Shown here: positions 8,832-57,127 of the stretch, piece after piece | Position numbering within the stretch: the first letter of the stretch is position 1 | How the letters are laid out: each line of letters opens with the position of its first letter | Source of the DNA: Candidatus Omnitrophota bacterium | GTDB taxonomy: Bacteria > Omnitrophota > Gorgyraeia > Duberdicusellales > 4484-171 | DNA: 64,000 bases | NCBI GenBank assembly: GCA_037146775.1 | Contig: JBAWWL010000006.1 | Location: 15,120 to 79,119 of the forward strand | Reading direction: 5' to 3' | Translations under genes and position numbers: made by a program | The notes under the pieces: generated by a model | Told to the model about the DNA's origin: nothing | Databases searched by the model: none | Seen by the model: only the letters and a program-made list of their open reading frames with translations

Positions 8832-8832
8832 T

Positions 8833-30285: not shown

Positions 30286-31719
30286 TTAACCTCCGACGAA
30301 AAAACGTACCGGTAATATAAAAACATCCAATATAAAAGGAAAAAATAAACCTGCCGCTACTACAATAAACGCGAGCACTATCGACGCTAACACCAAGCCA
30401 AAACCAGCTTCGTGCGTATGAGCTAAATCTTGCCGCAATTTTCCGAAAAATACCATCCGTTGCATTGCTAAAAGATAACTCAAAGTTAAAACGCTTGCTA
30501 AAATCGCCGCAAAAGCAATAGCAAAATGCCCGGTCTGCCATAAAGCTATTACGATAAGAAGCTTGCTCCAAAAACCTGCCAACGGCGGGACACCGGCGGC
30601 AGACAGACTGGCAAGAACTGAAGTAAAACCGGTAACCGGCATGGTTTTAGAAAGCCCTCCCATCCGATGCATATCCGTTGTGCCGGTTTCCAGTTCCAAA
30701 GCAGCCGCGTTGACGAATAACAGTGACTTAAAAATCGTATGATTGAAAAAATGAAAGGCTGCTGCTGCCATGCCTAAGGGCGTTGCGCAACCAAGACCCA
30801 GCATAATATAGCCTACCTGGCTGATACTGGAATAGGCGAGCATTCTTTTCAAATCACTTTGAGCCAACGCAGCTAAAGCTGCAATAAATATGGAAAGTAA
30901 GCCGATACTTAAGATAACCATGTCCACCGAAGCATCCGGCATAAAAACAAAACTCACTACTCTTATCAGAGCATACACGCCTAAAATCTTGGATACTATA
31001 CCAGCGAGAAATAAAGAAACGGCTGCGGAAGAATGAGAATACACATCAGGAAGCCAGGCATGAAACGGAACAAGTCCTGCTTTTACGGAAAGTCCGCTGA
31101 TAAAAAGCCCCACAGCAAGCATAGCCAGAAACGTATGCTCCGAACGGGGAAGTGCCTGATGTATTGCCATAAAATGAGTGCTGCCGGTAATAAGGAGTAA
31201 AATGGCTATTGATAACAGCATAAAAACCGAAGCAACGATGGAAAGAACGATATATTTAAATGTCGCACTCATCGCCCGCAAGTCTTTTTCGAAAGAAATA
31301 AGAACATAGGAAGCCACCGCGGTGATTTCAATAAAGACATACAGAGAAAAAATATCAGCCACCAAGACCACCGCGTTCATCCCGCTTACCGCGAACAACA
31401 ACAGATTAATAAAGTTAAATTTGCGCCGCTGATCTTTATGCACAGAGGCGGCCACCACTAACGTCAAGGACGCTACAATACCGATACAAAGCAGCATTAG
31501 AATACTTAAACCGTCCAGCATAAGCCCGAATTTAAACATAGAGCCGGGCAATTGGAAACTTGTAGCATAGGATGGTATAGTCAGAAAAAACGACAGAACT
31601 GCCTGGGCGCCAAACAAAAGTAAGCTCCACCAAAATATAAATCCGCGTCCTCTATTGAAAAAAGGAAGATTAAAAATGATGACGCTTAAAAATGGGACTA
31701 CTATCAATAGGGATAACAT
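30286..31719 (-). CDS. Mrp antiporter-like subunit (MrpD/NuoM-like)
   Basis: 477 aa proton-pumping-subunit family (WLPDVYSHSSAAVS). Confidence 0.8.
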   Translation of the reverse strand: MLSLLIVVPFLSVIIFNLPFFNRGRGFIFWWSLLLFGAQAVLSFFLTIPSYATSFQLPGSMFKFGLMLDGLSILMLLCIGIVASLTLVVAASVHKDQRRKFNFINLLLFAVSGMNAVVLVADIFSLYVFIEITAVASYVLISFEKDLRAMSATFKYIVLSIVASVFMLLSIAILLLITGSTHFMAIHQALPRSEHTFLAMLAVGLFISGLSVKAGLVPFHAWLPDVYSHSSAAVSLFLAGIVSKILGVYALIRVVSFVFMPDASVDMVILSIGLLSIFIAALAALAQSDLKRMLAYSSISQVGYIMLGLGCATPLGMAAAAFHFFNHTIFKSLLFVNAAALELETGTTDMHRMGGLSKTMPVTGFTSVLASLSAAGVPPLAGFWSKLLIVIALWQTGHFAIAFAAILASVLTLSYLLAMQRMVFFGKLRQDLAHTHEAGFGLVLASIVLAFIVVAAGLFFPFILDVFILPVRFFVGG

Positions 31720-31723
31720 ATTT

Positions 31724-33568
31724 TTATCTACCTTTAATTGAATAAAAGAGAAATACCACCACGAGAGATAACCCCGCCAACGCCCACCCTAAATATACGG
31801 AATAATTTTCTGTATGCCTCCTCTTAATAACACCGGCGAGCCATACAATAAACTTTGCCACTACACCTTCGTATAACCAGTCTATTTTTCTGTCTACCCA
31901 AAAAGCAATCGCGCACATCCTTTTTAAAAAAATACGGCCGACATCGTACGGGTCGAAGAATCTACGTTCGGCTCGATCGTATACCCCGCGAAGCAAAGGT
32001 GCGCGGCGTATATGATCGGCGGCATGCAGGCCGCTGCCGGACATCTTTACTCCAAAAATATGATTCAAAAATGCCAGCACCAAGACTATCACAGTCGCAA
32101 TCGTAAGTTTCAGATTTAAAGGAAAAACAGTAAAACTATGACCGTGTAACCTCTCCTGGCCCAATACAGGGGCAATCAGCTTAGCCAGAGGTACACTATT
32201 GAACAAACCGAATAATATACAGAAGAGACTTAAAACGATCATAGGAACTAACATACCCCAGGATGCTTCTTGTGCGCTTTTGTTTTTTTCCGAGACACCG
32301 CCAAAGAATACGGCATGGCCGAGCTTTAAAAAAGAGGCGGCCGTGAAGAAAGATCCTATAATTGCCGCAAGATAAAAAATAAGCCCCCTACTCAGGGCTG
32401 CTTCATAAATTAATTCTTTAGAGAAAAATCCGTTAAAGGGTGGAACTCCCGATATCGAAACAGCGGTAACAGCAAAACATACGAAGGTTACCGGCATTTT
32501 CTTCATCAAGCCGCCCAAAACTTCTAAATCAGCCGTTCCTGTTTGTTTTTCTACCGAGCCGGCAGTAAGAAAAAGAGCGCTTTTGTAAATTGCGTTATTA
32601 ATCATATGAAACAATCCACCCACAATACCTATGGGCAACGCCGTACCGATACCTAAGATCATGTAACCCACCTGGCTGATAGCATGATATGAAAGAAGCC
32701 GTTTATAGTTTTTCTGGATCAAGGCCATCATGACCGCCAGAAGTATAGTGCCTGAGCCAATAATCATAAGTAAAACACTCAACCAGGAAGCCGGGTTAAG
32801 CTGAAACAAATCCAAGGAAATTCGGGTGAGAAAATAGATACCTAAAAGTTTTTCTAAAACTGCAGGCACCAGGGCCATGAAAGGCACGTCGCTTGCAATG
32901 GCGGCGTCGGGTATCCAGCTGTGAAACGGCATAGAGCCGGCCTTAGAGATAGCACCAATCATCAAAAGAATAAATGCAACCACAGACATCCCCTGCAAAG
33001 GAAGATTAATCTTTGACATAGTCAATGTTCCGGCGAGATAGCCACAGAGAGCTATACCGATCATCATACACAAATCCGCGATACCGGTTATTATAAAAGC
33101 TTTTGTTGCCGCTTTAAACGCGTGGTTTGAGCCGATAGCTATCATCCCGAAAAGAACCAAAAGCAATCCCTCCCAGAAAAATAGCATCAGGAACAAGTTA
33201 TCAGAAAGCACTGCGCCGCAGGCAAAAGCAATGGTTATCAAAAAATAGGAGTAAAACTGCCGCAAGTGCGCCTTAGCGCTCATGAAAAAAACTGAGTACA
33301 GAGAGATCAAAAACCCGAATCCATTGACTGCCAGCATAATAAACGCGCTGAAGCGGTATAATCGTAAAGAAAATTCAAAAGACGGCCCCAGCCAAGGCAA
33401 AATATACACGCAATCATTTTTAAATAGAAATAAAGTCAATAAAAAATTGGCTGCCGTAGCAGAGAGCGTAATACATTCTCTTACCTTACGTAACCTATGC
33501 GGAACAAAAAATGTTCCTAAGGCAGCGGCTAAGGGTATAAGTATTGGCAGAAATAGCAGCTTATTCAT
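31724..33568 (-). CDS. Mrp antiporter-like subunit (MrpA/NuoL-like)
   Basis: 614 aa (WIPDAAIASDVPFMA); C-terminal extension typical of NuoL/MrpA. Confidence 0.8.
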   Translation of the reverse strand: MNKLLFLPILIPLAAALGTFFVPHRLRKVRECITLSATAANFLLTLFLFKNDCVYILPWLGPSFEFSLRLYRFSAFIMLAVNGFGFLISLYSVFFMSAKAHLRQFYSYFLITIAFACGAVLSDNLFLMLFFWEGLLLVLFGMIAIGSNHAFKAATKAFIITGIADLCMMIGIALCGYLAGTLTMSKINLPLQGMSVVAFILLMIGAISKAGSMPFHSWIPDAAIASDVPFMALVPAVLEKLLGIYFLTRISLDLFQLNPASWLSVLLMIIGSGTILLAVMMALIQKNYKRLLSYHAISQVGYMILGIGTALPIGIVGGLFHMINNAIYKSALFLTAGSVEKQTGTADLEVLGGLMKKMPVTFVCFAVTAVSISGVPPFNGFFSKELIYEAALSRGLIFYLAAIIGSFFTAASFLKLGHAVFFGGVSEKNKSAQEASWGMLVPMIVLSLFCILFGLFNSVPLAKLIAPVLGQERLHGHSFTVFPLNLKLTIATVIVLVLAFLNHIFGVKMSGSGLHAADHIRRAPLLRGVYDRAERRFFDPYDVGRIFLKRMCAIAFWVDRKIDWLYEGVVAKFIVWLAGVIKRRHTENYSVYLGWALAGLSLVVVFLFYSIKGR

Positions 33569-33575
33569 CTTATTA

Positions 33576-35018
33576 TTAGTGGCTCATTATTTGCCAAGTG
33601 GCAACCTTGGCAAAAATAAAAGGAAAATTAATCAAGATCCCGCTCGCCAAAGAAAGGATTGCCAGCGTTACCACACAGGCGAGCATCCCTGGCGAACCCT
33701 CTATAGCTTCTGGCCCGTGCGTTTCTCCCATAAAAACCATGTTGAATACCCTGAAAAGATACGCAATAGTTAAACAAGCTCCCGCTAAAAAAAGAAATAT
33801 AATATAGAAATTCCCGGACTCTGCCGCAGCGCTAAAAACCATATACTTGCTAAAAAACCCTCCAAAAGGCGGTATCCCCATTACGGAAAAAGCGCAAAAC
33901 AAAAAAGATACAGCGGTAAGAGGCATGGTCTTGATAAGCCCTCCGAGAGAGGTAATATCTCTTGTTTTCGTGTTCTGTTCGACAATACCGGCGCAAAGAA
34001 AAAGTCCGGCCTTGGAAATACCGTGCATAAGAATATATAACAGCGCGCCGATAATACCGATTTCCTTGCCGAGAGCAAATCCAAGAAAAATAAAACCTAT
34101 CTGGCTAATAGTGGAATACGCGATGATCCGTTTTAAGTCCGTTTCTATCAAAGCTGCTCCTCCGGCCACCAGAGCGCTCACACCCGCACTACAAGGTATG
34201 ATGGTATGCCAAATAAACGAAACATCAAAAGTTGCCACAAAAATCCTGGCAAAAACATACACCCCTATTTTAACCAGCACGGCCGCATGCAGAAGTGCTG
34301 TCACCGGAGAAGGCGCAATACCGGCATCAGGAAGCCAAGTCTGAAAAGGCAGCGTGGCTGATTTGGCGAATATGCCGCACAAAAGCAGCAACACCACCAT
34401 ATTATCCAACGGCCGGGACTTAAAAACTTCTCGTATAACCGCAAGGTCAAACGAGCCAGCCTGCTGATAGATAGAAATAAAACCGATCAGCATCAAAAGC
34501 GATCCGAAGATCGTTATGAGAAAAGCTTTATCAGCGCGCAGAATATAGTGTTTCTCCCTGAAAAAACCGATCAAACGCCAGCTACATACGGCGGTTATTT
34601 CCCAAAAAACATATATAAATATCAAGTTGGCGGAAAAAACCAGCCCCATCATCGCCCCCAGGAATAAGGTAACCATAGAATAATATTCGTTCTGATTTTC
34701 ATAATGGCTGATATAGCTAAAAGAATAAAGTAGAATAACCGTGCTCAAAAATGCCGACACGCAAGCCATAAAAACAGCTAATGAGTCGGCAGTAAACACA
34801 AGATTGAAACCCTGCGGGAATTGTCGCGCAAAGATCAAGGTTTTCCCGGATATTACCAACGGTATCAGCGACAAAGAAAGCACAAACGAAGAAAAAATCA
34901 AAATAAAGGAAAAAATATTTCGTAACCGGGCATTATATCGACCTAATAACGGCAGGAAAAATGCTCCAGCAAGAGGGATAAAAATAGTGCTCAAAAGTAT
35001 CATTTTGTATTTAATCAT
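33576..35018 (-). CDS. Mrp antiporter-like subunit (MrpD/NuoN-like)
   Basis: 480 aa (WLPDAGIAPSPVTA); its start overlaps or abuts the mgtA stop. Confidence 0.8.
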   Translation of the reverse strand: MIKYKMILLSTIFIPLAGAFFLPLLGRYNARLRNIFSFILIFSSFVLSLSLIPLVISGKTLIFARQFPQGFNLVFTADSLAVFMACVSAFLSTVILLYSFSYISHYENQNEYYSMVTLFLGAMMGLVFSANLIFIYVFWEITAVCSWRLIGFFREKHYILRADKAFLITIFGSLLMLIGFISIYQQAGSFDLAVIREVFKSRPLDNMVVLLLLCGIFAKSATLPFQTWLPDAGIAPSPVTALLHAAVLVKIGVYVFARIFVATFDVSFIWHTIIPCSAGVSALVAGGAALIETDLKRIIAYSTISQIGFIFLGFALGKEIGIIGALLYILMHGISKAGLFLCAGIVEQNTKTRDITSLGGLIKTMPLTAVSFLFCAFSVMGIPPFGGFFSKYMVFSAAAESGNFYIIFLFLAGACLTIAYLFRVFNMVFMGETHGPEAIEGSPGMLACVVTLAILSLASGILINFPFIFAKVATWQIMSH

Positions 35019-37617
35019 AACCGAATTTCCTGATAAACCACCCTTTCACTATCTGGACTAAGATGAGATACGTGAGGACCATAAAAAATAGAAACACAAA
35101 ATAAAGCGGCGGCGGAGCCACGAAACTAAAAGCGCTCGCCAAAGGCGAAAATGGGATCGCGATACCGATAGTAACTATTAAAATCGAAGTCAAAATCAAA
35201 AAACGGCTGGGACGGCTTTCAATAAAAGGAATTTTTCCGGTACGTATTATATGGATAACCAGCGTCTGGGTGCACAGGGACTCGATGAACCATCCAGTAT
35301 GGAAAAGCGCCGGGTTATTCCAAGTGTTAAAAACAAAAAGCATTATACCATAGGTAAGAAAATCGTAAATCGAACTTAAAGGCCCTATGATAACCATAAA
35401 ATTCCTGATCGCCTTCACATTCCAGGGCCTGGGCTTACTTAAATAATCCCTATCCACCTCATCAGTAGGTATCGCCACTTGGGAGAGGTCATAAAGAAAA
35501 TTATTGAGCAATATCTGGATAGGTAACATCGGCAAAAACGGCAAGAACAGACTGCCGCCGGTCATACTAAGCATATTGCCAAAATTGGAGCTGGAGCCCA
35601 TCTTGATATATTTAACGATATTACCGAAGGTTTTTCTGCCCTCCATAACGCCGTCTTCAAGCACCATAAGGCTTTTCTTCAAAAGTATAATATCCGCTGA
35701 TTCCTTGGCAATATCCACCGCATTATTTACGGAAATGCCTACATCCGAAGCTTTAAGGGCGGGTGCATCATTGATACCGTCACCGAGGTAACCGACGATG
35801 TGCTGGTTATTATGCAAGGCGTGGATAACCCGTTCTTTTTGCAACGGTGCAAGCCGAGCAAAGACAGTGGTGGTTTTCACTACTTCCCGGAGTTCCTGAT
35901 CACTCATTGTTTCGATCTGGATACCAGTAACCAGACCTTTCACGTCCAACCCCACTTCTTTGCATATTTTCTTGGTTACCAACTCGTTATCACCGGTTAA
36001 AACCTTAACTTCCACTCCTAAATTTTTAAGAGCTCTGATGGCTTTCTTGGCCGTAGGCTTTGGCGGATCAAGAAACGCTAAATAACCTTTAAGCACCAAA
36101 TCTTTTTCATCTTCTTTCGAATACACGTCTTTTGCGGTATCGATATCCTTATAAGCAACAGCCAAAACCCTGAAACCTTCGGAACTTAGCTTATCATATT
36201 CCTCTTTAAGATCGGCAAGTATCAAATACTCCATATCCAGGAATTCTCCGTCTATTTCGTACTTCGAACATCGTTTAAAAATTTCCTCCGGTGCACCCTT
36301 GGAAATAATACGTCGTTTACCGTCCATATCAACCACTACCGACATTATTTTTCTGGAAAAATCAAAGGGTATTTCGTCTATCTTTCTAAATTTTTCCGTC
36401 AACACTTCCTGGTGCTTTAAAATAGCGCGGTCAAGAAGATTTTTTAAACCAGTCTGAAAAAAACTATTAAGGTAAGAAACCCGCAGAACATCCTCGTCTT
36501 CCCTGCCTACCACATCGCAGTGCCTTTCCAAAACTATATGGTCCAGGGTTAAGGTGCCGGTCTTATCGGTGCAGAGCACATCCATTGCTCCAAAATTCTG
36601 TATGGAGTTTAAGCGCTTAACAATAACCTGTTTCTTCGACATCTTGATCGCACCCTTGGAAAGATTGATCGCCACCAGCATCGGCAACATTTCCGGAGTC
36701 AAACCAACCGCCACACCAAGAGAAAACAACAAGGACTCAATGAGGTTTCCGCGCCGCAGCGCGTTGATAGCGAAAATAAAGCATACCATAAAAAGCATAG
36801 CGCGGATCATCAGCCAGGTAAATCTTTGTATCCCTTTGTCGAAACTCGTTTCCACCCTAATGGTAGCCAGCCGGCGCGATAGCTCTCCAAACCGGGTATT
36901 AATGCCGGTTTTTATCGCAACGCCTAAAGCCGTTCCGCTCACCACGCTTGAGCCCATAAAGACAATATTAGACAGCTCTGAAATGGAATTATTTTTCGGC
37001 TGGATAACATCCGAGTTCTTTTCGATGGGGAATGATTCTCCGGTTAAAGAAGCCTGGTTAATAAAAAGATCTTTGGAAGAAATAATCCTTAAGTCAGCCG
37101 GGATCATATCGCCGGCGAACAAATCAACGATATCTCCGGGGACTATCTCCCTGATGTTGATTTCTTGTGCCTGGCCATCACGGTACACGGTAGCGGTAGT
37201 ACGCACCATTTCTCTTAATTTTTCGGCTTCTTTGCTGGAACGGTATTCTTGAACAAAGGAAAGAAAAACGCTCATTAGAACCATCGCAAAAACCAGTATG
37301 GCGCTGATTTTGCCTCCAAAAAATAACGAAAAGGTTCCAATAATAATCAGCACGATAACGAGTGGGTTGAGAAACTTGGAAAGAATTTGTGCGAAAATAG
37401 TACGCTTTTTCTTCTTGGCAGGCTCATTGGGACCGTACACAGAAAGGCGCTCGCGGGCATCTTTCGTCGAAAGCCCCTTTTCGGAAGTTTTCAGTCTCTC
37501 AAAAATCGCTTTAAGAGAGGCGCTCACAAAACCAACCTCAAAACCTGCAAACTGACCCCGGTCACCTGGAGAAAGAGGTGTAACGTGAGTAGTGTTTGGC
37601 TTCCAAGATATTCTCAT
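35011..37617 (-). CDS. mgtA: Mg2+-importing P-type ATPase MgtA
   Basis: 868 aa; phosphorylation site CTDKTGTLT; MgtA-specific AGDMIPADLRI, QASLTGESFPIEK and LTGDNELVTKKICKEVGL. Confidence 0.85.
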   Translation of the reverse strand: MRISWKPNTTHVTPLSPGDRGQFAGFEVGFVSASLKAIFERLKTSEKGLSTKDARERLSVYGPNEPAKKKKRTIFAQILSKFLNPLVIVLIIIGTFSLFFGGKISAILVFAMVLMSVFLSFVQEYRSSKEAEKLREMVRTTATVYRDGQAQEINIREIVPGDIVDLFAGDMIPADLRIISSKDLFINQASLTGESFPIEKNSDVIQPKNNSISELSNIVFMGSSVVSGTALGVAIKTGINTRFGELSRRLATIRVETSFDKGIQRFTWLMIRAMLFMVCFIFAINALRRGNLIESLLFSLGVAVGLTPEMLPMLVAINLSKGAIKMSKKQVIVKRLNSIQNFGAMDVLCTDKTGTLTLDHIVLERHCDVVGREDEDVLRVSYLNSFFQTGLKNLLDRAILKHQEVLTEKFRKIDEIPFDFSRKIMSVVVDMDGKRRIISKGAPEEIFKRCSKYEIDGEFLDMEYLILADLKEEYDKLSSEGFRVLAVAYKDIDTAKDVYSKEDEKDLVLKGYLAFLDPPKPTAKKAIRALKNLGVEVKVLTGDNELVTKKICKEVGLDVKGLVTGIQIETMSDQELREVVKTTTVFARLAPLQKERVIHALHNNQHIVGYLGDGINDAPALKASDVGISVNNAVDIAKESADIILLKKSLMVLEDGVMEGRKTFGNIVKYIKMGSSSNFGNMLSMTGGSLFLPFLPMLPIQILLNNFLYDLSQVAIPTDEVDRDYLSKPRPWNVKAIRNFMVIIGPLSSIYDFLTYGIMLFVFNTWNNPALFHTGWFIESLCTQTLVIHIIRTGKIPFIESRPSRFLILTSILIVTIGIAIPFSPLASAFSFVAPPPLYFVFLFFMVLTYLILVQIVKGWFIRKFGYD

Positions 37618-39591: not shown

Positions 39592-40926
39592 CTATAAAAT
39601 AGGAAGATATGTCTTAGTTTCGTATTCGTGAACCTGTTTACGATACTCATCCCATTCAATCTTTTTGCTCATAATCAGGTTAGTAAATACATGTTCTCCT
39701 ACTGTTTCTTTCAGCAGCTCGCTTTTTTCTGTAATTTCAATAGCCTCAACTAAGCTGCCCGGAAGACACTTGACGCCCAGACTTTCCATCTCCTCGTAAC
39801 TTAGATTGTACACATCGCGTTCAAGCGGTTCAGCCAGCGGATATTTGTTTTCAATTCCTTTTAAACCTGCTGCCAGCATACAGGAAAATGCCAGATAAGG
39901 ATTACAGGCCGGATCCGGAGAACGAAACTCAATACGCGTGGCTTTTTCTTTACCGGGCTTATACATAGGAACCCGCACGAGGGTGCTGCGATTGCGGCGC
40001 GCCCAGCAGATATAAACCGGCGCCTCATAACCGGGAACAAGCCGCTTATAGGAATTAACCCACTGATTACACACTAAGGTTATTTCCGGAGCATGTTTTA
40101 ATAATCCGGCGATATAACTCTTCGCTTCCCCGGATAAATAATACTTATCATTAGGGTCAAAAAAAGCGTTCGCATTGCCCCTGAACAACGACTGATGGGT
40201 GTGCATACCGCTGCCATTGACTCCGAATATCGGCTTTGGCATAAATGTTACATAGAGACCGTATTTTTGCGCGATCTCTTTAGCCACCATTCGATAGACC
40301 ATGACAATATCCGCCATCGCCAAGGCATCGGTATAACGCAAATCAATTTCGTGCTGGGAAGGAGCAACTTCATGGTGTGAATATTCAACCTGGATCCCCA
40401 TCTCTTCTAACGTAAGAATAATTTCTCTGCGCACTTCATTTCCCGCATCAAGCGTGGTCAAATCAAAATATCCGCCCTCATCAATGACTTGAGTTGATTT
40501 TTCATCCTTAAATATAAAGAACTCAAGTTCCGGGCCGGTATAAAAAGTAAACCCCTTGGCCTTTGCTTTTTCCAAGTTTTTTCTCAAAATATAGCGTGAA
40601 TCGCCCTGGTAAGACGTGCCATCAGGATTAAGAATATCGCACAGCATTCCAGCAACAGCTTTCTCTTTTGGCCGATAAGGAAGCAAGGTAAAAGTGGTCG
40701 GATCAGGCATAGCCATCATATCCGACTCATCAATCCTGGCAAAGCCCTTAATCGACGAACCATCAAACCCCATACCTTCATTCAAGGCACCTTCAAGCTC
40801 GTCGCGCGTAATGGAAAAACCCTTCATCTGTCCGGTAATATCCGCAAACCAGAGCTTGATAAATCTGACATCTTTTTCTTTTACCATGTTTAAAATATCT
40901 TTTTTGCTGAAATTATTTTTACCCAT
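39592..40926 (-). CDS. glnA: Glutamine synthetase type I
   Basis: 444 aa with full GSI architecture; Shine-Dalgarno AGGAGGGG upstream. Confidence 0.9.
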   Translation of the reverse strand: MGKNNFSKKDILNMVKEKDVRFIKLWFADITGQMKGFSITRDELEGALNEGMGFDGSSIKGFARIDESDMMAMPDPTTFTLLPYRPKEKAVAGMLCDILNPDGTSYQGDSRYILRKNLEKAKAKGFTFYTGPELEFFIFKDEKSTQVIDEGGYFDLTTLDAGNEVRREIILTLEEMGIQVEYSHHEVAPSQHEIDLRYTDALAMADIVMVYRMVAKEIAQKYGLYVTFMPKPIFGVNGSGMHTHQSLFRGNANAFFDPNDKYYLSGEAKSYIAGLLKHAPEITLVCNQWVNSYKRLVPGYEAPVYICWARRNRSTLVRVPMYKPGKEKATRIEFRSPDPACNPYLAFSCMLAAGLKGIENKYPLAEPLERDVYNLSYEEMESLGVKCLPGSLVEAIEITEKSELLKETVGEHVFTNLIMSKKIEWDEYRKQVHEYETKTYLPIL

Positions 40927-40985
40927 ATCCCCTCCTTATTTTAGGGCATGTACGCAGTTAAAAAATCAGTAAAGCTCTTGATTAT

Positions 40986-41003
40986 CCGCAAACCGCTTGC
41001 CGG
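40986..41003 (-). promoter_or_regulatory. Candidate sigma54 (-24/-12) promoter or hairpin upstream of glnA
   Basis: The minus strand reads CGGCAAGCGGTTTGCG, with GG and GC at the correct spacing. The same sequence can also fold as AAACCG/CGGTTT. Confidence 0.3.
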
Positions 41004-41194
41004 TTTCACACAGAAAATATCCGGCAAAACTTGCTATTATTGTAGCAGGCTTTTTGAGTAAATCAATAATTAAGTACGGGTTTATGTTGACTTTTACGGG
41101 TGGATAAAAATAGAAAGATTTGAGGTTCGCAACATATACATTAAATAAAATACATCCGGAGCGCTTAGCTAACTATTCCACACAAATCCACTGC

Positions 41195-41740
41195 TCAATG
41201 TTCTTTGATGAACTTTTCACCGCTCCATGCCCACAATTCCCAAGTATCTAATTGTTCTGTCGAACAATCCGCGGTACCACTTTTATTCTTGCCGATCTTA
41301 ACCCGGCTTAAACCCGAATCAAAGTCTCCGTCTACACCGCAACTGCTTTCCGCAGTAAACAGCCTAGAGAGGCGATTGTCTTTTATATCATAGATAACCA
41401 AAGCAAGCATACCTTTTGCTTCATAATATACGACTATTTGCTTGTAGTCGTTATTATTTAGATCAATAAATTGTATTTTGGTAAACCGGCCGGGGACGGT
41501 AAATGTGTTCACCTTATTTTTGGACGGTTCCTTGTCCTTCTTGGTGATGGTGACCAACGCATCGGCTTGTGCATCAAACCTATCCGTGACTTCAACAACC
41601 TCCGCAATCATATCGTTATCCAAGTCAACTTTAAACTGCTCAACACCTTTGGGCAATTTCTCTTTTTTGCCATTCAGAGTAAGGCATGAGCTAAACGAAA
41701 CAGCCAGTAATACCAGAACCACTAAGCGCATTATTCCCAT
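41195..41740 (-). CDS. Hypothetical lipoprotein
   Basis: Signal peptide with lipobox FSSC; no recognisable domain. Confidence 0.4.
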   Translation of the reverse strand: MGIMRLVVLVLLAVSFSSCLTLNGKKEKLPKGVEQFKVDLDNDMIAEVVEVTDRFDAQADALVTITKKDKEPSKNKVNTFTVPGRFTKIQFIDLNNNDYKQIVVYYEAKGMLALVIYDIKDNRLSRLFTAESSCGVDGDFDSGLSRVKIGKNKSGTADCSTEQLDTWELWAWSGEKFIKEH

Positions 41741-41794
41741 GACGATACCCCCATAAAAAGTATTATAACCGTTTTTAATAATTGAACAATAGTT

Positions 41795-41838
41795 TATGTT
41801 AGGATGAAAACGAAAGAGGCATCCTCCCGTATCGGGAA
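41795..41838 (-). terminator. Rho-independent terminator after gdhA
   Basis: Stem AGAGGCATC...GATGCCTCT with an inner TCCCG/CGGGA stem at 41806-41838, followed on the minus strand by UUCGUUUUC. Confidence 0.5.
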
Positions 41839-41869
41839 GATGCCTCTGGATAGTTAACAGTTACGCTAA

Positions 41870-43246
<1,377 letters not shown>

Positions 43247-43260
43247 TTATTTTTATGTGG

Positions 43261-44679
43261 TTATTGGCTGACAGTATCAAGCATTGCTTGTGCAGCTTTT
43301 TTCGCCATCCCCATGGCCTCAATAACCGTTCCTTCTCCTCCGACGATATCACCGCCGGCAAAAACACCCTTTACCGAAGTCTCCATGGTATCCTGGTTTA
43401 CTATCACATCCGCGTAAGAATCTGTTTTTAGCTGCGGCGTAACACTGGTAAGTATCTGATTTGCCTTCAATCCTATGGCGATAATTGCTTCATCGCATTC
43501 CAATTCGAAATCACTGCCTTTGATCTCGATTGGCCGTCTGCGACCAGACGCATCCGGTTCGCCCAACTCACATTGTAAACATTTTATATTGTGTACCAAA
43601 CCCTGTTCATCGCCAAGAAACGCCTCTGGTTTCACCAAAAGCCTAAACTTCACGCCTTCTTCTTTAGCATGCTCAATCTCAAGGCGGCGGGCCGGCATCT
43701 CTATTTCGGTACGCCGATACAAAATAGTAGTATCGGGCGCTATATCATTCATTTTTTGCAACCTCAACGCTACGCGCGCTGAATCCATGGCGGTATTACC
43801 TCCGCCGACGACAACAATATGTCTGCCGATGGTAACAGGAGTATGGGTTTTAGGAAACGCATACGCTGACATGAGGTTCACTCGGGTCAAAAACTCATTC
43901 GCGGAATACACATTACAAAAATTTTCGCCCGGGATACCCAGAAATGATGGTATACCCGCTCCCAAACCAAGAAAAATTCCGGTATAACCCTGAGTGAAAA
44001 GTTCCTCCAAGGTGATATTTTTACCGACAATAAAATTCGGGATAAAAGTCACCCCCATGGCTTTTAACGAATTGATTTCGGAATCCAAAATATCTCGCGG
44101 AAGACGGAACGGAGGTATACCGTAGCGTAATACCCCTCCTAATTTATGCAAGCTTTCGAACATGTCGACTTTTATGCCGGCCCTGGCCAGTTCTCCGGCA
44201 CAGCATAACCCTGCCGGCCCGGAACCCACCACCGCCACCTTCTTAACGTTGGACGTTGGACGTTGAACGTTGAACGTTGAATTTTGATTATGCATCCCAT
44301 AGTCGCCGACAAACCGCTCAAGAAAATGTATGTTGATCGCCTGGTCGGACGCGTAAGGAGAACCTTTTTTCGTGAGCACGCAGGCATTACGGCACTGATA
44401 TTCCGCCGGGCACACTCTTCCGCAGATAGAAGGAAAATTATTTTTCTCTCTGATGGTAAGATACGCCCCTTGATAATCTTTTTGCGTAATCTGATAAATG
44501 AACTTTTTGATATCGATTCCCACAGGACAACCGGAACTACAGGCCGGATTTTTGCACTGCAGACAACGCGATGCTTCGTGAAGCGTCTCTTCTTCGCTAT
44601 AGCCGGCAACAACCTCCTGGAAATTATTAACCCTGACAGCGGCAGCCACTTCTTTAATCTTAACCGGATCTTTTCTCAT
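43261..44679 (-). CDS. nfnB: GltD-like FAD/NAD(P) oxidoreductase (NfnB/SudA-type, glutamate synthase small-subunit family)
   Basis: N-terminal Fe-S cysteine cluster, VAVVGSGPAGLCCA and a second NAD(P)-binding fold; paired with a PyrK-like subunit. Confidence 0.8.
   Translation of the reverse strand: MRKDPVKIKEVAAAVRVNNFQEVVAGYSEEETLHEASRCLQCKNPACSSGCPVGIDIKKFIYQITQKDYQGAYLTIREKNNFPSICGRVCPAEYQCRNACVLTKKGSPYASDQAINIHFLERFVGDYGMHNQNSTFNVQRPTSNVKKVAVVGSGPAGLCCAGELARAGIKVDMFESLHKLGGVLRYGIPPFRLPRDILDSEINSLKAMGVTFIPNFIVGKNITLEELFTQGYTGIFLGLGAGIPSFLGIPGENFCNVYSANEFLTRVNLMSAYAFPKTHTPVTIGRHIVVVGGGNTAMDSARVALRLQKMNDIAPDTTILYRRTEIEMPARRLEIEHAKEEGVKFRLLVKPEAFLGDEQGLVHNIKCLQCELGEPDASGRRRPIEIKGSDFELECDEAIIAIGLKANQILTSVTPQLKTDSYADVIVNQDTMETSVKGVFAGGDIVGGEGTVIEAMGMAKKAAQAMLDTVSQ
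44245..44279. repeat. 7-bp tandem repeat (RACGTTG, 5 units) inside the nfnB linker region
   Basis: aacgttg gacgttg gacgttg aacgttg aacgttg; translated on the minus strand it gives STFNVQRPTSNV, between the Fe-S domain and the FAD-binding domain. Confidence 0.7.
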
Positions 44680-50286: not shown

Positions 50287-51450
50287 TTACGTGCGAAACG
50301 GATAGGCTTTCAGAAATGCATCAACAGCGCAGGGCGCAAACTGCTTTCCTCTATTACGCACTATCTCGGCACGAGCTTGCTCTCGAGAAATACCCTTATG
50401 ATACGGCCTGTCGGTCACCATCGCGTCAAACGTATCGGCAAGGGCAATGATCGAAGCTATCAAGGGAATTTGACGCCCCTTAAGACGGAACGGATAGCCA
50501 TTACCATCATATTTTTCGTGATGATACTTGACCCCCAGTAATACCTCCTGAAACGCCTCGATATGCTCTAAAATAGCCGCACCCACAAGAGGGTGAGTTT
50601 TAACCAATTTCTTTTCTTTTTTGTTTAGCCGCACGTTTTTATGAAGAATGTGTTCCGGAATCCCGATCTTTCCTATATCATGCAAAAGCGCGGCTATGTT
50701 AAGATTCTCCACAAAACGTTCCCAGTTTTTGATAGGTTTGCTCTTGCGCAAAACATGCGCAATATGAAGCGCATATTTTGCCACTCGCTCGGTATGGCCA
50801 ATTGTATATTTATCTTTTGCCTCAATGCTTGAGGCAAGTGACGCGATCGTCTGCAGCAGAAGCCGTTTATTGGCGTCAATTTGGCGGTTAAGATCTTCAA
50901 TGAGCCAGGCATTTTTGAGCGCCATAACTATATCCGAAGCGAGCGTTGAAAGAAAGCTCAGCTCGGCGTCGTGAAATTTTTTTTTATTTGCCTTCTCTCC
51001 CAAAAACAAAACCCCAACCAAGTCATTGCGGAAAAAACCGGGAATACACGCGTGAGCCTGATACGAAAAAAGTGCGTCTTTGACTTCCTCTAAAAATTTC
51101 TTCATTGGGGCATTTTCCCCGATCCCAAAAGACTCACATGCGCCGCTGACCCCATCGGCAGTAATTATTTCTCCGGGGAAATAAATACTTTTATCGGTAA
51201 AACACCTGATAAGAGGATTGTCTTTTCGTATTTTCGCAAAACCAGCCGGTATTTTAAACCCTCGGCTGCCGCGGGAAACCTGCAGCACATATTCATCCCT
51301 TTTTTTATCATAAATAAACATGCCTGCATGGCTCAATCCGACAGCACGGACAATCGTGCGTAAAATCATTTTTATCAACGTATTCGCCCGATGAATCATA
51401 ATAGTCTGACGGGCAGCTTTTTCCAATGCTTTACGATAATCGAGCTTCAT
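50287..51450 (-). CDS. GAF-HD-GYP c-di-GMP phosphodiesterase
   Basis: N-terminal GAF domain; HDIGKIGIPEHILHK and HHEKYDGNGYP motifs. Confidence 0.8.
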   Translation of the reverse strand: MKLDYRKALEKAARQTIMIHRANTLIKMILRTIVRAVGLSHAGMFIYDKKRDEYVLQVSRGSRGFKIPAGFAKIRKDNPLIRCFTDKSIYFPGEIITADGVSGACESFGIGENAPMKKFLEEVKDALFSYQAHACIPGFFRNDLVGVLFLGEKANKKKFHDAELSFLSTLASDIVMALKNAWLIEDLNRQIDANKRLLLQTIASLASSIEAKDKYTIGHTERVAKYALHIAHVLRKSKPIKNWERFVENLNIAALLHDIGKIGIPEHILHKNVRLNKKEKKLVKTHPLVGAAILEHIEAFQEVLLGVKYHHEKYDGNGYPFRLKGRQIPLIASIIALADTFDAMVTDRPYHKGISREQARAEIVRNRGKQFAPCAVDAFLKAYPFRT

Positions 51451-51495: not shown

Positions 51496-51870
51496 TTAAG
51501 GGTTACCGATATACATTTCAACCTTCTGTCGTAGTTCATGCAAATCTAACGGTTTTGTAATATAATCCAACGCGCCGCATTTCTTCGCTTTCTGTTGACA
51601 TTTCTTGTCATCTTTACCGGTAATCATGATGACCTTCAGGGAGGCGTCTGCCGCCCTAAGTTCTTCAAGCACGGCAATACCATCTTTGTCGGGCATTTGG
51701 ATATCCAAAAAAACATAATCCGGTTTATGCTCGCGATATGCAGCAAGAGCCTCTTGGCCTTTATTTATCTTAATGACGTCGAAATTAAAACGCCTTAAGA
51801 AATGTTCTAAGAAATCAACAATTTCCTGTTCGTCGTCTACCACTAATGCTTTTTTTCTGGCATCATTCAT
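51496..51870 (-). CDS. Stand-alone response-regulator receiver (CheY-like)
   Basis: DD...D acidic pocket (VVDDEQE, FLDIQMPDKDG), T (MITGK) and K (ITKPLD). Confidence 0.8.
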   Translation of the reverse strand: MNDARKKALVVDDEQEIVDFLEHFLRRFNFDVIKINKGQEALAAYREHKPDYVFLDIQMPDKDGIAVLEELRAADASLKVIMITGKDDKKCQQKAKKCGALDYITKPLDLHELRQKVEMYIGNP

Positions 51871-51983: not shown

Positions 51984-53321
51984 CTAAATTAAAGAAAGAT
52001 ATTCCTTCCCTTCCAGGAAAGGGTTTAAGGAGCGCTCGATTTTATAGCCGGGCTTTTTCTCGCTTAAATTAAGTATTCCTTTTTTCTCTGAAGGGACTAG
52101 CACTTCTACGGTAGGAAAAAATATATCTTCCGCATTCTCTTCTCTGACTACGGCAATATAACCGTCCTCAAGAACCACGATAGTACCTCTCGGCCACACC
52201 CCCATTATCTTGAAAAATTTTTCCAAAAGAAAAGGATCAAACGCCCCGGCACTTTCCCGCATCATTAAATCATAAATCATCCGTGGCGGATAATCTCTCT
52301 TGTACGTTCTACGTTGCATCAGCGCATCATACACGTCACAGATCGAAACCAGCAAAGAAATAATATGAGGCTTTTGCTTAAAAGAAAGCTTCGGATACCC
52401 TTTCATATCGTAGCGTAAGTGATGTTCAAACGCCACGACCGCCGGCAACATTCCCAGCGTATCCACATATTGCAAGAGCATCTCGGCCCCCTGGATCGTG
52501 TGACTTTGTATAGTCAAAAATTCTTCGCTCGACAGTTTATCCGGCTTGGTAATAATACGCTTCGATATGTAAATCTTACCGATATCGTGGAATAATGCGG
52601 CAATGCCGACATCCAACATATCATCCTTTGAAAGCCCAAGCATCGCAGCAAAATTCATAGACAGAATCGAAACATTTAAAAGATGCGTAAACGTCGAAAC
52701 ATCATATTTTTTAATCCCTGCAAGTTTAGCAAACTCTTCATAATTACCCACGAGATTATCTACCACCATCATCATGGTAAACTTAAGCCCTACTCCATCC
52801 ACCTCTTTGTTGTCAAGCAGCACATCGACAAACTGAGAAGTCCGCTCTAACGAATTATCATAATAGTCTTGATAACCCGTCGGCTGCACCGCAACGGCTT
52901 CGGACGAAGAAAGCCCGAGTTTACTCACCAGAACATTTCGAATGCCCTGCACAGAAAAATATTCCTGCACATCTTTAGGAGCTTTATCGCGGGTTAACGC
53001 AAGATATTCCACAAATTTTGCTAATTCATCTCTGGACAGGCCACGGTGAAAAATAATTTTTTCTATTCCCCGCTCTTTGAATAAAGAAATAATTAATTTT
53101 GCTTTTTTGCTCAACTCAAAGAAAATTTCTTTTTCAAAAATAAGCTCATCCCCGACCACCCCTATCACCAGTTCTTCTTTTTCGTCTAAGAGTGCGACAA
53201 GACTGGCGTAATTTTTATCAAGAAATTCCATGAATTTAGGATGCGCGGTAGTATAAATCTTAGCTATCTGGAACAAAGACAACAAATCCTTTAAAAAACA
53301 CTCAATCCTTTCGCGCATCAA
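51984..53321 (-). CDS. HD-GYP phosphodiesterase with an N-terminal DUF3391-like domain
   Basis: HDIGKIYISKRIIT and HHLRYDMKGYP motifs; the N-terminal ~120 aa are paralogous to the N-terminus of the upstream 643-aa protein. Confidence 0.75.
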   Translation of the reverse strand: MMRERIECFLKDLLSLFQIAKIYTTAHPKFMEFLDKNYASLVALLDEKEELVIGVVGDELIFEKEIFFELSKKAKLIISLFKERGIEKIIFHRGLSRDELAKFVEYLALTRDKAPKDVQEYFSVQGIRNVLVSKLGLSSSEAVAVQPTGYQDYYDNSLERTSQFVDVLLDNKEVDGVGLKFTMMMVVDNLVGNYEEFAKLAGIKKYDVSTFTHLLNVSILSMNFAAMLGLSKDDMLDVGIAALFHDIGKIYISKRIITKPDKLSSEEFLTIQSHTIQGAEMLLQYVDTLGMLPAVVAFEHHLRYDMKGYPKLSFKQKPHIISLLVSICDVYDALMQRRTYKRDYPPRMIYDLMMRESAGAFDPFLLEKFFKIMGVWPRGTIVVLEDGYIAVVREENAEDIFFPTVEVLVPSEKKGILNLSEKKPGYKIERSLNPFLEGKEYLSLI

Positions 53322-55233
53322 GCTCCTCTATTGTCCGCTTAGCCAAAAAACGTAAGCGACGATTCCAAAAGAATCTTCGCTGAGCCAAACGTCTTAAGTA
53401 CTCCTTCGCCTCTCTTAACCCAACATCGCGGACAATCTTAACATTTTCCTCCAAAAACTTATTCCTAAACCACAACTGATCCGAAAAACTAAGCAGCAAC
53501 TCCGCCGCCTTTTGGCGTTGTCCCTGGTCTTTCATAAGAGCAATCACAGCCTGCTTTTTAATTATTACACCGGACTCCTCCAAAAGCGCATATAAGAAAT
53601 CTGCCTCCAGATAAGAAGCCTGCTCGAGTGCCCGTAATATTTCTAACTTCAGAAAACTGTCACACACATAAAAAATATCCTTTAAAAACTTAAAAGAATA
53701 TATATTATCCACTTTGCATACACTCTCGATAAGCTTTTTCATAAAAGCTATATCATCGACTTTTCTTTTGATACGCTGAAAAAGGGCATCAATTTCGTCA
53801 GGAAAAAATTTTAAAAATAACTCGATAATATAAGAGGTATGGGCACTGCCGCTAAATATCTTATCAATATACGTATCGACGCCAATAGTGCTTTTTTGCA
53901 TATAGCCGACAAAAAAGCCGGGATCAAAACCGATATCATCGCTCAACATCGTCTCTTCCGCAAAAGCGCTAATACGTGTTCCTAATTCCTCAAACCCCTG
54001 GAATTGGGCAACATTTTTCTTTTTTATGTCCTCTAAGGCCGTAGCCAATGTGGTAAGATAAGCAAAATCCTTGTCTTTAACGATAGCATCAAACTCTTTT
54101 ATAATACTATTCGCAACGCGCTGCAGTTGCTCTCCTCTTTTTTCTTGTGTAAGTACATTCAACTGCAGAAGCCGGTAATTTTTCGTAACCAGTTGGCGGT
54201 TGAATGAAATGGCGCCATCCTTAAATGACTCTTCCATAAGAGTGGAGAGGTAACGATGGTATAGCTCGGAAAAAAATGGATCGTCCACCTGAGAGAATAC
54301 TTCGACGACCCTTTTGATCATTGCCGGATTAGCGCGTAACTCGGCTTTTACCTTGTCGGTAAACGCAACAGTAAACGCTTGCCGATATTTCTGACCTAAC
54401 AATTTCGAAAAAAGCACTAAGTTAAGAGGGTCGAATCGTTCATTCGCTGCCATCTCACCCCACAATGTGTCAACAAATTCTTTTTCGGTGGCATATTGCA
54501 AAAATGATTTCAATTGCTCAGTCTTACCTGCATCGAGAGATGCGCGGTCTTGCAACACCGTTCGCAGTAACTTTTTGGTACACCGGTACAACCGCTCCCG
54601 ATCGTTTTCCTTAAGATAAGCAAATAGCTGCTCAACATTTTCTCGAACAGTAGCATCGTCAAAAATCTTTGTGCCAGAAGTGGTTATAAACTTCTCAAAA
54701 TGATCGGCGATATCGGTTATCGCGGGTGCGTTTTTCTTTCCAAGCGCTTCCCTCAAGAGATACCCCCACACATCTGTGCATTCCTCGATTCCTCCGGCCT
54801 GCAGCAACTCTGAATAATCGAGCTCCGTCAATCGGATATGCGTAATATTTTCTTTTCCCAGAATAAAAGACAGTCCTCCCCGTTTAAGAATTTCACTCGG
54901 CATAAGAGCAATACTATTTAAAAAAACTATCAGCTCCTCGACGGTAATGCCCTGGCGTATTTCGATAGTCTTTATTTTTCGGCGATGGAACGCATGTGCG
55001 AGATCTTTATAAAGCTGCTCTCCTTCCCAATATTTTTCAGCACAAAAAAGCGAAACGGGGGTGACGCCGACAGTTAAAGGGTCCGATATAGCCAGAAGAA
55101 CGTATATGCTCTCTTCCAGGCTTTCGACAGATTTGATAAAAGCGGGGTGCTCCTTAAAATAAATAGAAGTAGTATTGAAGGCTACGCGTAGCTTTTTGAA
55201 AAAATCTTCGTATAACGTTTCTCTTTCCATCAA
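53302..55233 (-). CDS. Large alpha-helical hypothetical protein occupying the ftsZ position of the dcw cluster
   Basis: 643 aa with no tubulin GGGTGSG signature. Its N-terminus is homologous to the HD-GYP N-domain. The start overlaps the ftsA stop (ATGA) and the end overlaps the HD-GYP gene. Confidence 0.5.
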   Translation of the reverse strand: MMERETLYEDFFKKLRVAFNTTSIYFKEHPAFIKSVESLEESIYVLLAISDPLTVGVTPVSLFCAEKYWEGEQLYKDLAHAFHRRKIKTIEIRQGITVEELIVFLNSIALMPSEILKRGGLSFILGKENITHIRLTELDYSELLQAGGIEECTDVWGYLLREALGKKNAPAITDIADHFEKFITTSGTKIFDDATVRENVEQLFAYLKENDRERLYRCTKKLLRTVLQDRASLDAGKTEQLKSFLQYATEKEFVDTLWGEMAANERFDPLNLVLFSKLLGQKYRQAFTVAFTDKVKAELRANPAMIKRVVEVFSQVDDPFFSELYHRYLSTLMEESFKDGAISFNRQLVTKNYRLLQLNVLTQEKRGEQLQRVANSIIKEFDAIVKDKDFAYLTTLATALEDIKKKNVAQFQGFEELGTRISAFAEETMLSDDIGFDPGFFVGYMQKSTIGVDTYIDKIFSGSAHTSYIIELFLKFFPDEIDALFQRIKRKVDDIAFMKKLIESVCKVDNIYSFKFLKDIFYVCDSFLKLEILRALEQASYLEADFLYALLEESGVIIKKQAVIALMKDQGQRQKAAELLLSFSDQLWFRNKFLEENVKIVRDVGLREAKEYLRRLAQRRFFWNRRLRFLAKRTIEELDARKD

Positions 55234-56378
55234 AAATATTCTTTATATATCCTGAGAAAACGATGGAAAAACGAATCTTGGCCGCCACGGATTCGCTCAA
55301 GATACCGGCATGCCGCGTAACAGGCGCAACCGTACGACAAAGACTCCCCCACGCCAGCGGCAGCAACAACTACGGATTGCGGTATAAAACTTTTCAAGAA
55401 ATCAGCAAAACCATCCTTTGCATTTAAACGCCCCGTAACAGTGAGGTTAAACTCCTGAGGTACATCTTTACGGATAGCTTCTATGATAACGTTTATTTCA
55501 TTCTTTATGTATTCCTTAACAAATGAATTGACGGTATTCGTACTCACGTTAAGATACGTATCTGCGTTTTTGATACTTACCTCTTTAAAATACGGCAACT
55601 CCCGGAATGATATATAGCGATCAAATACCTCTTGGGATAAAGACACAGGAATGAAATGTTTCTTTGCCAGCTCCTGCAAGATACTTTTTAAACCGAAAGC
55701 AAATTCCTGCACGCACAAAAGATTTCCTTCTACAAATATCGCGACATTACTTTTTTCGTAACCAATGTCAATAATACCGGCGGCGTTTGCCGAAATCAAT
55801 TGTGTGCCGTTTGCGGAAACCGAACTTGCGGCTGCAAAAATCATACCACCCAGCTTTTTCTCTAGATGCGAGAATACCCCCTCTATATCCTTACGAAATG
55901 CATCTTTTACCCACACAAGAAGCGATTTCAACTTTATTTTTTTCGCAACCACGCCCACAGGCGGCCGCACATAGCTTTTCCCTTCAACTTCATAACGCAG
56001 CACAAAATGATGCATACAAAAATCATCCCAGTCTAGATACGCGTCTTCGACATATTTTTTCGTAAATAAAATATCGCCGGAGGTGATTTTTTTACGTTTC
56101 CCTAAAGGAACTATGGATTCAACCACGCGCCGCTGTTCCAGCCCCCATGGGACATTGAGATACACCGTATCGACAGAAATAGAGAGCGCTCGAGCCTCTT
56201 CCTCTATAGCCTTGACAATAGCCGCCGCGTTCGCTTGCAGAAAATGAGAAAAGTTGTTACCATCAAAAGGTATAGCCAATTGCGTTTCGCGCAGACAATA
56301 CGCTTCGGACTTCGCCAGCCTCACCAGCGAAAAAAAAGTTTTATCCGGCCTGACATCTATGCCGCAAACCATTTTCAT
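55230..56378 (-). CDS. ftsA: FtsA-like actin-fold cell-division ATPase
   Basis: Actin/Hsp70-fold motifs (VCGIDV..., GIIDIGYEKSNVAIF, NLTVTGRLNA). The C-terminal amphipathic segment reads FFHRFLRIYKEYF. Overlaps ftsQ by 4 nt. Confidence 0.6.
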   Translation of the reverse strand: MKMVCGIDVRPDKTFFSLVRLAKSEAYCLRETQLAIPFDGNNFSHFLQANAAAIVKAIEEEARALSISVDTVYLNVPWGLEQRRVVESIVPLGKRKKITSGDILFTKKYVEDAYLDWDDFCMHHFVLRYEVEGKSYVRPPVGVVAKKIKLKSLLVWVKDAFRKDIEGVFSHLEKKLGGMIFAAASSVSANGTQLISANAAGIIDIGYEKSNVAIFVEGNLLCVQEFAFGLKSILQELAKKHFIPVSLSQEVFDRYISFRELPYFKEVSIKNADTYLNVSTNTVNSFVKEYIKNEINVIIEAIRKDVPQEFNLTVTGRLNAKDGFADFLKSFIPQSVVVAAAGVGESLSYGCACYAACRYLERIRGGQDSFFHRFLRIYKEYF

Positions 56379-57127
56379 CGTCTGTATCCCACGTATGCTT
56401 TCCTATAACGCAAATCAATATACTCAACCAAAGAAAGATCGCCCCTAAGCTGCTCTTTCAAAAGGTTTTCCAGAATGTAGAGTTTACGGGAAAATTCCTC
56501 TTTGCCAATAATCACTTTTGTATCTCCCATCATAAAATAAAAACTCTGCGGCTGCGTCGTATTAATCGCCGTAACAGGAAACTTTCTAAACACTTTATGC
56601 TTATTCAATTCGTCACTTAAGATAACCGCCGCAGTTAACCGTGGGTCTTTGAGACGCATTCCTCTGCGCAGACGAAAATGATAATCAGCCACCTCCAAGA
56701 GAATGATATTTTGAAATGCGCGAGAAGAAGGATCGCTCGTGATCACCCCTTCTCTGTCAATCAAACAAAAACCTTGGCTGGTGAGCTGTGCAAACGGCTT
56801 TCTTGTTTTAATATCTATGCGCACCGCCGAAGGAAATTCCTTGGTAATATGTATTTCTTTATATTCGGGATGAATAGTACGTATATATGTATAAATGTTT
56901 TTCGCAGGTAAATGGAAAAGGGATACGCCTAATAACCGCGTCTTAATGCTTTCCTCTATCGTAATATTCGCGCGCACCTGCCGTACGATAAAGAAGTTGC
57001 TCGCAAGAATTCGTATCGCACAAAACAACGCCAGCACGATAAGAACCAGCGACGCCCCTATCCACGCAAAAAAAGGGTTAAACTGAGAACTAACTTTTCC
57101 TGACTTCTTGAAATTGTTTTTTTTCAT
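56375..57127 (-). CDS. ftsQ: Cell-division protein FtsQ/DivIB
   Basis: N-terminal TM anchor; POTRA-like region; located between ddl and ftsA. Confidence 0.65.
   Translation of the reverse strand: MKKNNFKKSGKVSSQFNPFFAWIGASLVLIVLALFCAIRILASNFFIVRQVRANITIEESIKTRLLGVSLFHLPAKNIYTYIRTIHPEYKEIHITKEFPSAVRIDIKTRKPFAQLTSQGFCLIDREGVITSDPSSRAFQNIILLEVADYHFRLRRGMRLKDPRLTAAVILSDELNKHKVFRKFPVTAINTTQPQSFYFMMGDTKVIIGKEEFSRKLYILENLLKEQLRGDLSLVEYIDLRYRKAYVGYRR

Follow-up and report, generated by a model that had tools for sequence, protein, structure and literature searches.

Why should two adjacent genes, one for a putative signalling enzyme and the other for a large helical protein, begin with the same stretch of protein? 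The question is raised by a locus of a Candidatus Omnitrophota bacterium (GenBank assembly GCA_037146775.1, contig JBAWWL010000006.1, positions 15,120 to 79,119), a stretch of 64,000 nt which is called the window in the following. On its minus strand, a gene for a 643-aa protein (the large protein) is followed by an overlapping gene for a 445-aa HD-GYP protein (Table 1). The original prediction, made from the window alone, held that the N-termini of both proteins are alike, that they probably form a domain of the DUF3391 type, and that the proteins may bind a common partner or signal. Based on the results below, we conclude that the N-termini are homologous and constitute a distinct, undescribed domain family (hereafter N-domain) which matches neither a curated family nor a solved structure.

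Homology of the two N-domains is established by several sequence comparisons. BLASTP aligned residues 1-109 of the HD-GYP protein with residues 2-110 of the large protein (31% identity, E 3e-7), and a Smith-Waterman alignment of the two N-terminal 140-mers scored 102, compared to 30.6 ± 5.4 for shuffled sequences (z = 13.2; 0 of 3000 shuffles reached 102). When the HD-GYP N-terminus was compared with all 69 long open frames in the window, its best non-self match was the large protein. An ftsA-like protein encoded upstream (55230-56378) reached a Smith-Waterman score of 66 with the HD-GYP N-terminus (52902-53321), where the best shuffle against the N-terminus of the large protein scored 64; this similarity is probably due to chance, the target being longer. 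For five further gene pairs taken from public assemblies, alignment between the two families was always best from N-terminus to N-terminus, in register. The two family profiles were aligned by hhalign over 189 columns with a probability of 96% (E 4.5e-9), and a hidden Markov model (HMM) of the combined domain matched the large protein at residues 1-134 (E 3e-52) and the HD-GYP protein at residues 3-134 (E 2e-40), with no further match in the window. Coincidental similarity, biased composition or a recent duplication at the locus was considered as well and is negligible as an explanation, given z = 13 against shuffles, the conservation in register across phyla and the old divergence between the two classes.

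Accordingly, the similarity originally claimed for the first ~110 residues is confirmed. Its extension over the following ~60 residues was borne out in part only: hhalign and a few pairwise alignments do continue to residues ~165-195, whereas the HMM domain ends at about residue 134 and conservation beyond it is weak. The AlphaFold2 model of the HD-GYP N-terminus has low confidence at residues 124-140.

The N-domain is an alpha/beta domain of ~135 residues with the signature Y-x3-H-P ... G-x4-E-L-x2-F, which reads Y25-x3-H29-P30 and G95-x4-E-L-x2-F in the large protein, and Y23-x3-H27-P28 and G94-x4-E99-L100-x2-F103 in the HD-GYP protein. Conservation, in both families and across all phyla, is highest at the polar or aromatic loop residues of Y-x3-H-P (Tyr in 98%) and at the acidic Glu (87%). 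AlphaFold2 predicts the same order of elements for both N-domains, namely two long helices, three short strands, a helix, a strand and a final helix (αα-βββ-α-β-α), although the alignment behind the model of the HD-GYP N-domain consisted mostly of sequences of the other family, so that this model is not independent of that of the large protein.

The label DUF3391 had to be abandoned. No match to PF11871 (DUF3391) at E<=1 was found in either protein of the window using Pfam (gathering score 27.8 bits), and N-domain-bearing HD-GYP proteins from distant lineages lacked it as well, except for a 15-bit match of the linker helix in one of the loci gathered for comparison (L030; our locus numbers are given where needed). 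Gammaproteobacterial and betaproteobacterial HD-GYP proteins used as controls (L060, L068, L052, L045) matched the same model with 87-113 bits (E 1e-24 to 1e-32). Aligning the shared domain with DUF3391 by hhalign resulted in a probability of 0.1% (E 0.49). In the crystal structure of Bd1817, DUF3391 begins with four β-strands, and two long helices come after them (bioRxiv 10.1101/2021.11.05.467447); the N-domain is predicted to have this order reversed, helices first and then the sheet, which argues against membership. Further, 3TM8 was not among the Foldseek matches of the N-domain. DUF3391 shares with the N-domain its position ahead of HD-GYP, a similar length and an 'HP(F)' tripeptide; nevertheless, we consider it highly improbable that the shared region belongs to the Bd1817-family domain.

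Databases were also searched for any other relative. No Pfam or NCBIfam entry matched the N-domain, a Foldseek search against PDB gave nothing significant (best E 0.32), and comparison of the N-domain profile with PDB sequences yielded noise only (a designed protein, the Mx1 stalk). GAF and PAS domains produced no significant match in sequence or fold; below the threshold, Foldseek returned scattered GAF-type domains at E ~1-3, the GAF-like matches having E >= 0.3 and TM <= 0.27, which is only a hint from a modelled structure. HD-GYP proteins with undefined N-termini represent the commonest architecture, many of these domains are still undescribed, and the six N-terminal domains treated in the same study do not include the one found here (bioRxiv 10.1101/2021.11.05.467447). 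Neither the N-domain nor an operon of an HD-GYP protein with a HEAT partner was found in a full-text literature search, the coverage of which is incomplete, so that they may have been described. An origin from a defence system was rejected, as PADLOC detected only a trivial similarity of the HD domain to Cas3.

The N-domain is widespread. An exhaustive HMMER scan with its profile detected 3,155 cluster representatives at E ≤ 1e-3, of which 559 remained at a cutoff of 1e-10 and 148 at one of 1e-30. A word-indexed search had returned merely eight relatives for the large protein, one fragment for the HD-GYP N-terminus and four fragments for the combined N-domain alignment; this apparent rarity is an artefact of the method, which is untrustworthy for fast-evolving families. 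Related loci (88) were gathered using the HD-family alignment, and all of them were scanned with domain HMMs. Relatives within Candidatus Omnitrophota match over their full length with 40-52% identity. In many lineages beyond Omnitrophota, a HEAT protein of 550-820 aa carrying the N-domain is encoded directly upstream of an N-domain HD-GYP protein, namely in Geothermincola, Desulfobacterota/Deltaproteobacteria, Geobacteraceae, Zixibacteria, Thermodesulfovibrionia/Nitrospirota (twice in one locus), Rokubacteria and many Gemmatimonadota. In total, this cassette was found in at least eight bacterial lineages, its gene order unchanged and its frames overlapping in most cases. In the scanned loci, each HD-GYP protein with a confident N-domain has an N-domain HEAT gene directly upstream, the overlap typically amounting to 4-32 nt, and no such neighbour exists for any of the roughly 45 HD-GYP proteins lacking the N-domain. 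The surroundings of the pair vary: in Omnitrophota alone at least four neighbourhoods exist (after the division and cell wall (dcw) cluster in the window and L001; after a PAS-GGDEF cyclase; after glnA; after gdh, and elsewhere), and a Pfam census of 91 flanking genes revealed no conserved third gene, GGDEF being present in 4 of the 91.

A distance analysis covered 61 N-domains. For 58 of them, the closest domain was of the same class, and one clade of the neighbour-joining tree holds all 33 HEAT-type N-domains together with only two of the HD type. Since the two types fall into separate clades, the N-domain appears to have been duplicated once and long ago, the cassette having since been inherited or transferred as a unit; the distances are near saturation, and this conclusion on the age of the duplication is indicative only. 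One Nitrospirae contig (L043) contains the cassette twice, in divergent orientation, on the minus strand at 793-4070 and on the plus strand at 5826-9116. In one of these copies, the HD-GYP gene is divided between two open reading frames (ORFs; 7998-8777 and 8874-9116); a frameshift, a pseudogene or faulty assembly may be behind this.

The description of the large protein as HEAT-like and helical, encoded by the adjacent overlapping gene, proved correct, although the protein itself had no significant Pfam or NCBIfam match and matched no HEAT model (PF13646 HEAT_2, PF02985) at E<=1. Its AlphaFold2 model (mean pLDDT 82.5) shows about 30 helices after residue 149, and Foldseek matched this model with importins and transportins (karyopherins), SF3b155 and β-catenin at E ~1e-4; TM-scores were low, as expected for a solenoid that is flexible. 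Corresponding upstream proteins of distant lineages reach up to E 1e-36 with the Pfam HEAT_2 and PBS-lyase HEAT models; for instance, residues 469-554 of the partner protein in L019 are recognized as HEAT_2 (E 1e-36). The family of Omnitrophota large proteins aligned with the L019 partner by hhalign over the full length (573 columns, 96.3% probability). Judging from these models and alignments, the large protein is a HEAT/ARM-type α-solenoid. It has the α-solenoid in common with bacterial PBS-lyase/HEAT_2 (PF13646) scaffolds, and its distant orthologs match HEAT_2; unlike these scaffolds, the window protein is too diverged for HEAT models and possesses the N-domain as well as an additional conserved segment. 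This segment, invariant in Omnitrophota large proteins (ELDYSxLL..G...DvW.YLL; as a family-specific pattern, ELDYSxLL...DVWxYLL), directly follows the shared domain at residues 138-158 (about 54760-54822) and has no counterpart in the HD-GYP partner. A conserved RRFFWN motif was additionally observed near the C-terminus of the Omnitrophota proteins. Both the segment and the motif are candidate partner-binding sites.

The identification of the 445-aa protein as an HD-GYP protein is equally well supported, since Pfam HD and HD_5 match and its best relative of known structure is PmGH (4mcw, E 3e-31). The metal ligands H213, H245-D246, H274, H300-H301 and D329 align with those of PmGH and are invariant in the family, as is the tyrosine of GYP (G308-Y309-P310). 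At the position of the canonical HHExh[D/N]GxGYP, the window protein reads EHHLRYDMKGYP, in which HH, D and GYP are kept while Leu takes the position of Glu and Met that of Gly. Nearly all N-domain HD-GYP proteins across phyla have L, M or I in place of this Glu (EHH[L/M/I]), and most lack the Gly. The canonical motif is present in the other HD-GYP proteins of the window (50287-51450 and 21075-22490) and in most of those without an N-domain. Ser209 occupies the position of PmGH E185, which assigns the protein to the binuclear rather than the trinuclear subclass. The guanine-recognition motif RxY[K/R], indicative of c-di-GMP rather than cGAMP, is found in its RxYK form as R338-T-Y-K341, and also in other Omnitrophota members where the motif was detected; thus, going by sequence, the substrate in the Omnitrophota organism is most likely cyclic di-GMP (c-di-GMP). 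Most N-domain HD-GYP proteins of Gemmatimonadota and deltaproteobacteria have RxYQ/N instead (RxYQ or RxYN was seen in L018, L020, L021, L028-L030, L035, L038 and L040), a variant shown to favour 3′,3′-cyclic GMP-AMP (3′,3′-cGAMP; bioRxiv 10.1101/600031). The same two-gene architecture may, therefore, serve different cyclic dinucleotides depending on the phylum.

Two known systems allow a closer comparison. PmGH, a structurally characterized c-di-GMP phosphodiesterase of GAF-HD-GYP architecture (4MCW/4MDZ), shares the metal ligands, the GYP tyrosine and RxYK with the window protein, which differs in lacking the E185 equivalent, in having HHL instead of HHE and KPD instead of KPG, and in an N-terminal domain that is no recognizable GAF. 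The Bd1817 family (Bd1817, PA4108, VC2497) resembles the window protein in being soluble, in its size of ~420-450 aa, in an uncharacterized N-terminal domain of ~130 aa with a helical linker, and in a C-terminal extension of the form 'MGV(W/Y)PxGT.V.L' after the HD-GYP domain. However, its N-terminal domain is unrelated in sequence and of another topology, no paralogous HEAT partner gene is present, and the members in the gathered loci mostly have the canonical HHE..DG.GYP.

At the junction of the two genes, read directly, the large gene ends with the TGA at 53304-53302. According to the N-termini of orthologs, the ATG at 53318 is the likely start of the HD-GYP gene, resulting in an overlap of 17 nt, and the arrangement makes translational coupling of the two genes likely. 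The large gene itself likely starts with the ATG at 55230, which shares TGATG with the stop codon of the upstream ftsA-like gene.

Table 1. Features of the two-gene cassette and of the genes downstream of it, in window coordinates.
Feature	Position	Strand	Basis or remark
Large gene (643-aa protein, N-domain + HEAT-like solenoid)	53302..55233	-	ORF, junction sequence, AlphaFold2 model, family alignment
HD-GYP gene (445-aa protein, N-domain + HD-GYP)	51984..53321	-	ORF, Pfam HD_5/HD, relative PmGH (4mcw), starts of orthologs
N-domain of large protein (residues 1-~137)	54823..55233	-	HMM match, secondary structure, conservation
N-domain of HD-GYP protein (residues 1-134)	52920..53321	-	HMM match, AlphaFold2 domain model (predicted TM-score, pTM, 0.72), BLASTP
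Predicted all-helical HEAT/ARM-like solenoid body (residues ~149-640)	53314..54789	-	AlphaFold2, Foldseek, hhalign
HD-GYP catalytic domain (residues ~202-380)	52182..52718	-	Pfam HD/HD_5, PmGH alignment, motif
C-terminal extension of HD-GYP protein (~65 residues, MGVWPxGTIV...)	51987..52181	-	Family alignment; also in DUF3391-type HD-GYP proteins
Gene junction	53302..53329	-	GAGGAG Shine-Dalgarno within last codons of large gene, 4 nt ahead of HD-GYP ATG
REC gene	51496-51870	-	Downstream of HD-GYP gene after a 113-nt gap
Canonical GAF-HD-GYP gene	50287-51450	-	Downstream of cassette, past the REC gene

What would a phosphodiesterase and a solenoid protein gain from paralogous N-domains? Overlapping gene pairs of conserved order generally tend to encode subunits of one complex. 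Because of this tendency, we propose that the HD-GYP and HEAT proteins form a complex via their N-domains, in which the HEAT subunit would scaffold, localize or gate the c-di-GMP phosphodiesterase, and we give this proposal an even chance of being right. Translational coupling would supply both proteins in a fixed proportion, the paralogous N-domains would pair as a pseudo-symmetric heterodimer descended from an ancestral homodimerizing domain, and the HEAT solenoid would act as a scaffold which positions the enzyme, gates it or couples it to another partner. Hetero-complexes of HD-GYP proteins are known, such as RpfG with GGDEF proteins and HnoD inhibiting HnoB (bioRxiv 10.1101/2021.11.05.467447). 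These precedents resemble the present case in that HD-GYP proteins work inside hetero-complexes; on the other hand, their partners are other c-di-GMP enzymes contacted via the HD-GYP domain, whereas here the contact is proposed between paralogous N-domains and with a non-enzymatic repeat protein.

The original prediction had instead favoured a common partner or signal, i.e., the N-domain of each protein would sense the same small molecule, metal or third protein and the two would be co-regulated without contact between their N-domains. Conserved loop residues Y-x3-H-P and the Glu are what a binding site is expected to show, the N-terminal domains of HD-GYP proteins generally have a sensory role (bioRxiv 10.1101/2021.11.05.467447), and GAF-type ligand-binding domains are enriched among the sub-threshold Foldseek matches. 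However, these GAF-like matches are all insignificant, no pocket or ligand was identified, and independent sensing leaves the obligate adjacency, the fixed gene order and the translational coupling unexplained, while the 91 flanking genes contain no conserved third gene that could encode the common partner. We, therefore, rate common sensing as plausible but less likely than a complex; strict co-occurrence and translational coupling fit binding of N-domain to N-domain at least as well as a common partner or signal. Loss of the Glu of HHE, and usually of the Gly of DG, in this subfamily might also point to antagonism: either the N-domain of the HEAT protein competes with homodimerization of the HD-GYP protein as a stoichiometric inhibitor, or the HD-GYP protein is a catalytically dead receptor subunit for c-di-GMP. 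HD-GYP enzymes act as dimers, and degenerate ones acting by protein-protein interaction are known (bioRxiv 10.1101/2021.11.05.467447), but the metal-binding His and Asp residues are all strictly conserved, and so are the GYP Tyr and RxYK, from which catalysis is predicted to be retained, and we regard antagonism as quite improbable. Returning to the proposed complex, its broadest form would be an ancient and widespread two-subunit cyclic-dinucleotide phosphodiesterase, in which an EHH[L/M/I] HD-GYP protein is obligately heterodimerized via the N-domains with a HEAT subunit by which it is targeted or gated, the substrate switches between c-di-GMP and 3′,3′-cGAMP by lineage, and the cassette in the ftsZ slot is possibly tied to cell division. 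This broad form is put forward tentatively, as its chances are somewhat less than even.

Several observations concern the genomic surroundings of the cassette. In the window (55228-57127) and in L001 (6034-7970), it comes directly after ftsQ and a very divergent ftsA-like gene (TIGR01174, 38.8 bits versus a cutoff of 175.85), and in both cases its position in the dcw cluster is the slot usual for ftsZ. No FtsZ was found among the window ORFs scanned with Pfam, a scan which covered part of the ORFs. The REC and canonical GAF-HD-GYP genes downstream of the cassette are both absent from the otherwise syntenic L001 and are, therefore, interpreted as a lineage-specific insertion. The window thus encodes three HD-GYP proteins, one of HAMP-HD-GYP type (21075-22490), the GAF-HD-GYP protein and the one with the N-domain. 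In one Omnitrophota lineage (L002-L005; 7038-7991), the gene of a PAS-GGDEF diguanylate cyclase ends 9-18 nt before the large gene, and c-di-GMP synthesis and degradation may there be co-transcribed with the HEAT partner. Genes of nitrogen assimilation recur beside the Omnitrophota cassette as well: genes for glutamate dehydrogenase (GDH) or GlnA are located directly upstream in several loci, with carbamoyl phosphate synthetase (CPSase) nearby (L006, 6408-7805; L012, 4595-5950; L014, 4681-6015; L010, 2573-4228), and in the window GDH, GlnA and a GltD-like gene lie 7-12 kb downstream (39592-44679). With intergenic gaps of 130-200 nt, these genes may be neighbours by lineage synteny and not because of a functional link. 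Elsewhere in the window, AT skew is strongly positive (0.21-0.28) at 30-36 kb (30286-37617), where the minus strand encodes three membrane subunits of Mrp/complex-I antiporter type and a P-type cation ATPase; such a bias in composition is ordinary for membrane proteins. A search with Rfam detected no RNA families in the window.

Two classes of c-di-GMP phosphodiesterases exist, of which the HD-GYP enzymes are understood less well, and the nature of most of their N-terminal regions is unknown (bioRxiv 10.1101/2021.11.05.467447). One such undefined region can now be assigned to a distinct domain family with thousands of cluster representatives, which would justify a new Pfam entry. New in this work are the undescribed N-terminal domain family itself, its obligate paralogous HEAT partner and an active-site variant extending over the whole subfamily. 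If the proposed complex is real, it would represent a new way to regulate or localize the turnover of a second messenger, with a dedicated scaffold subunit, itself not an enzyme, in place of a fused sensor, and it would make signalling open to testing in phyla that have received little study, such as Omnitrophota, Gemmatimonadota and Zixibacteria.

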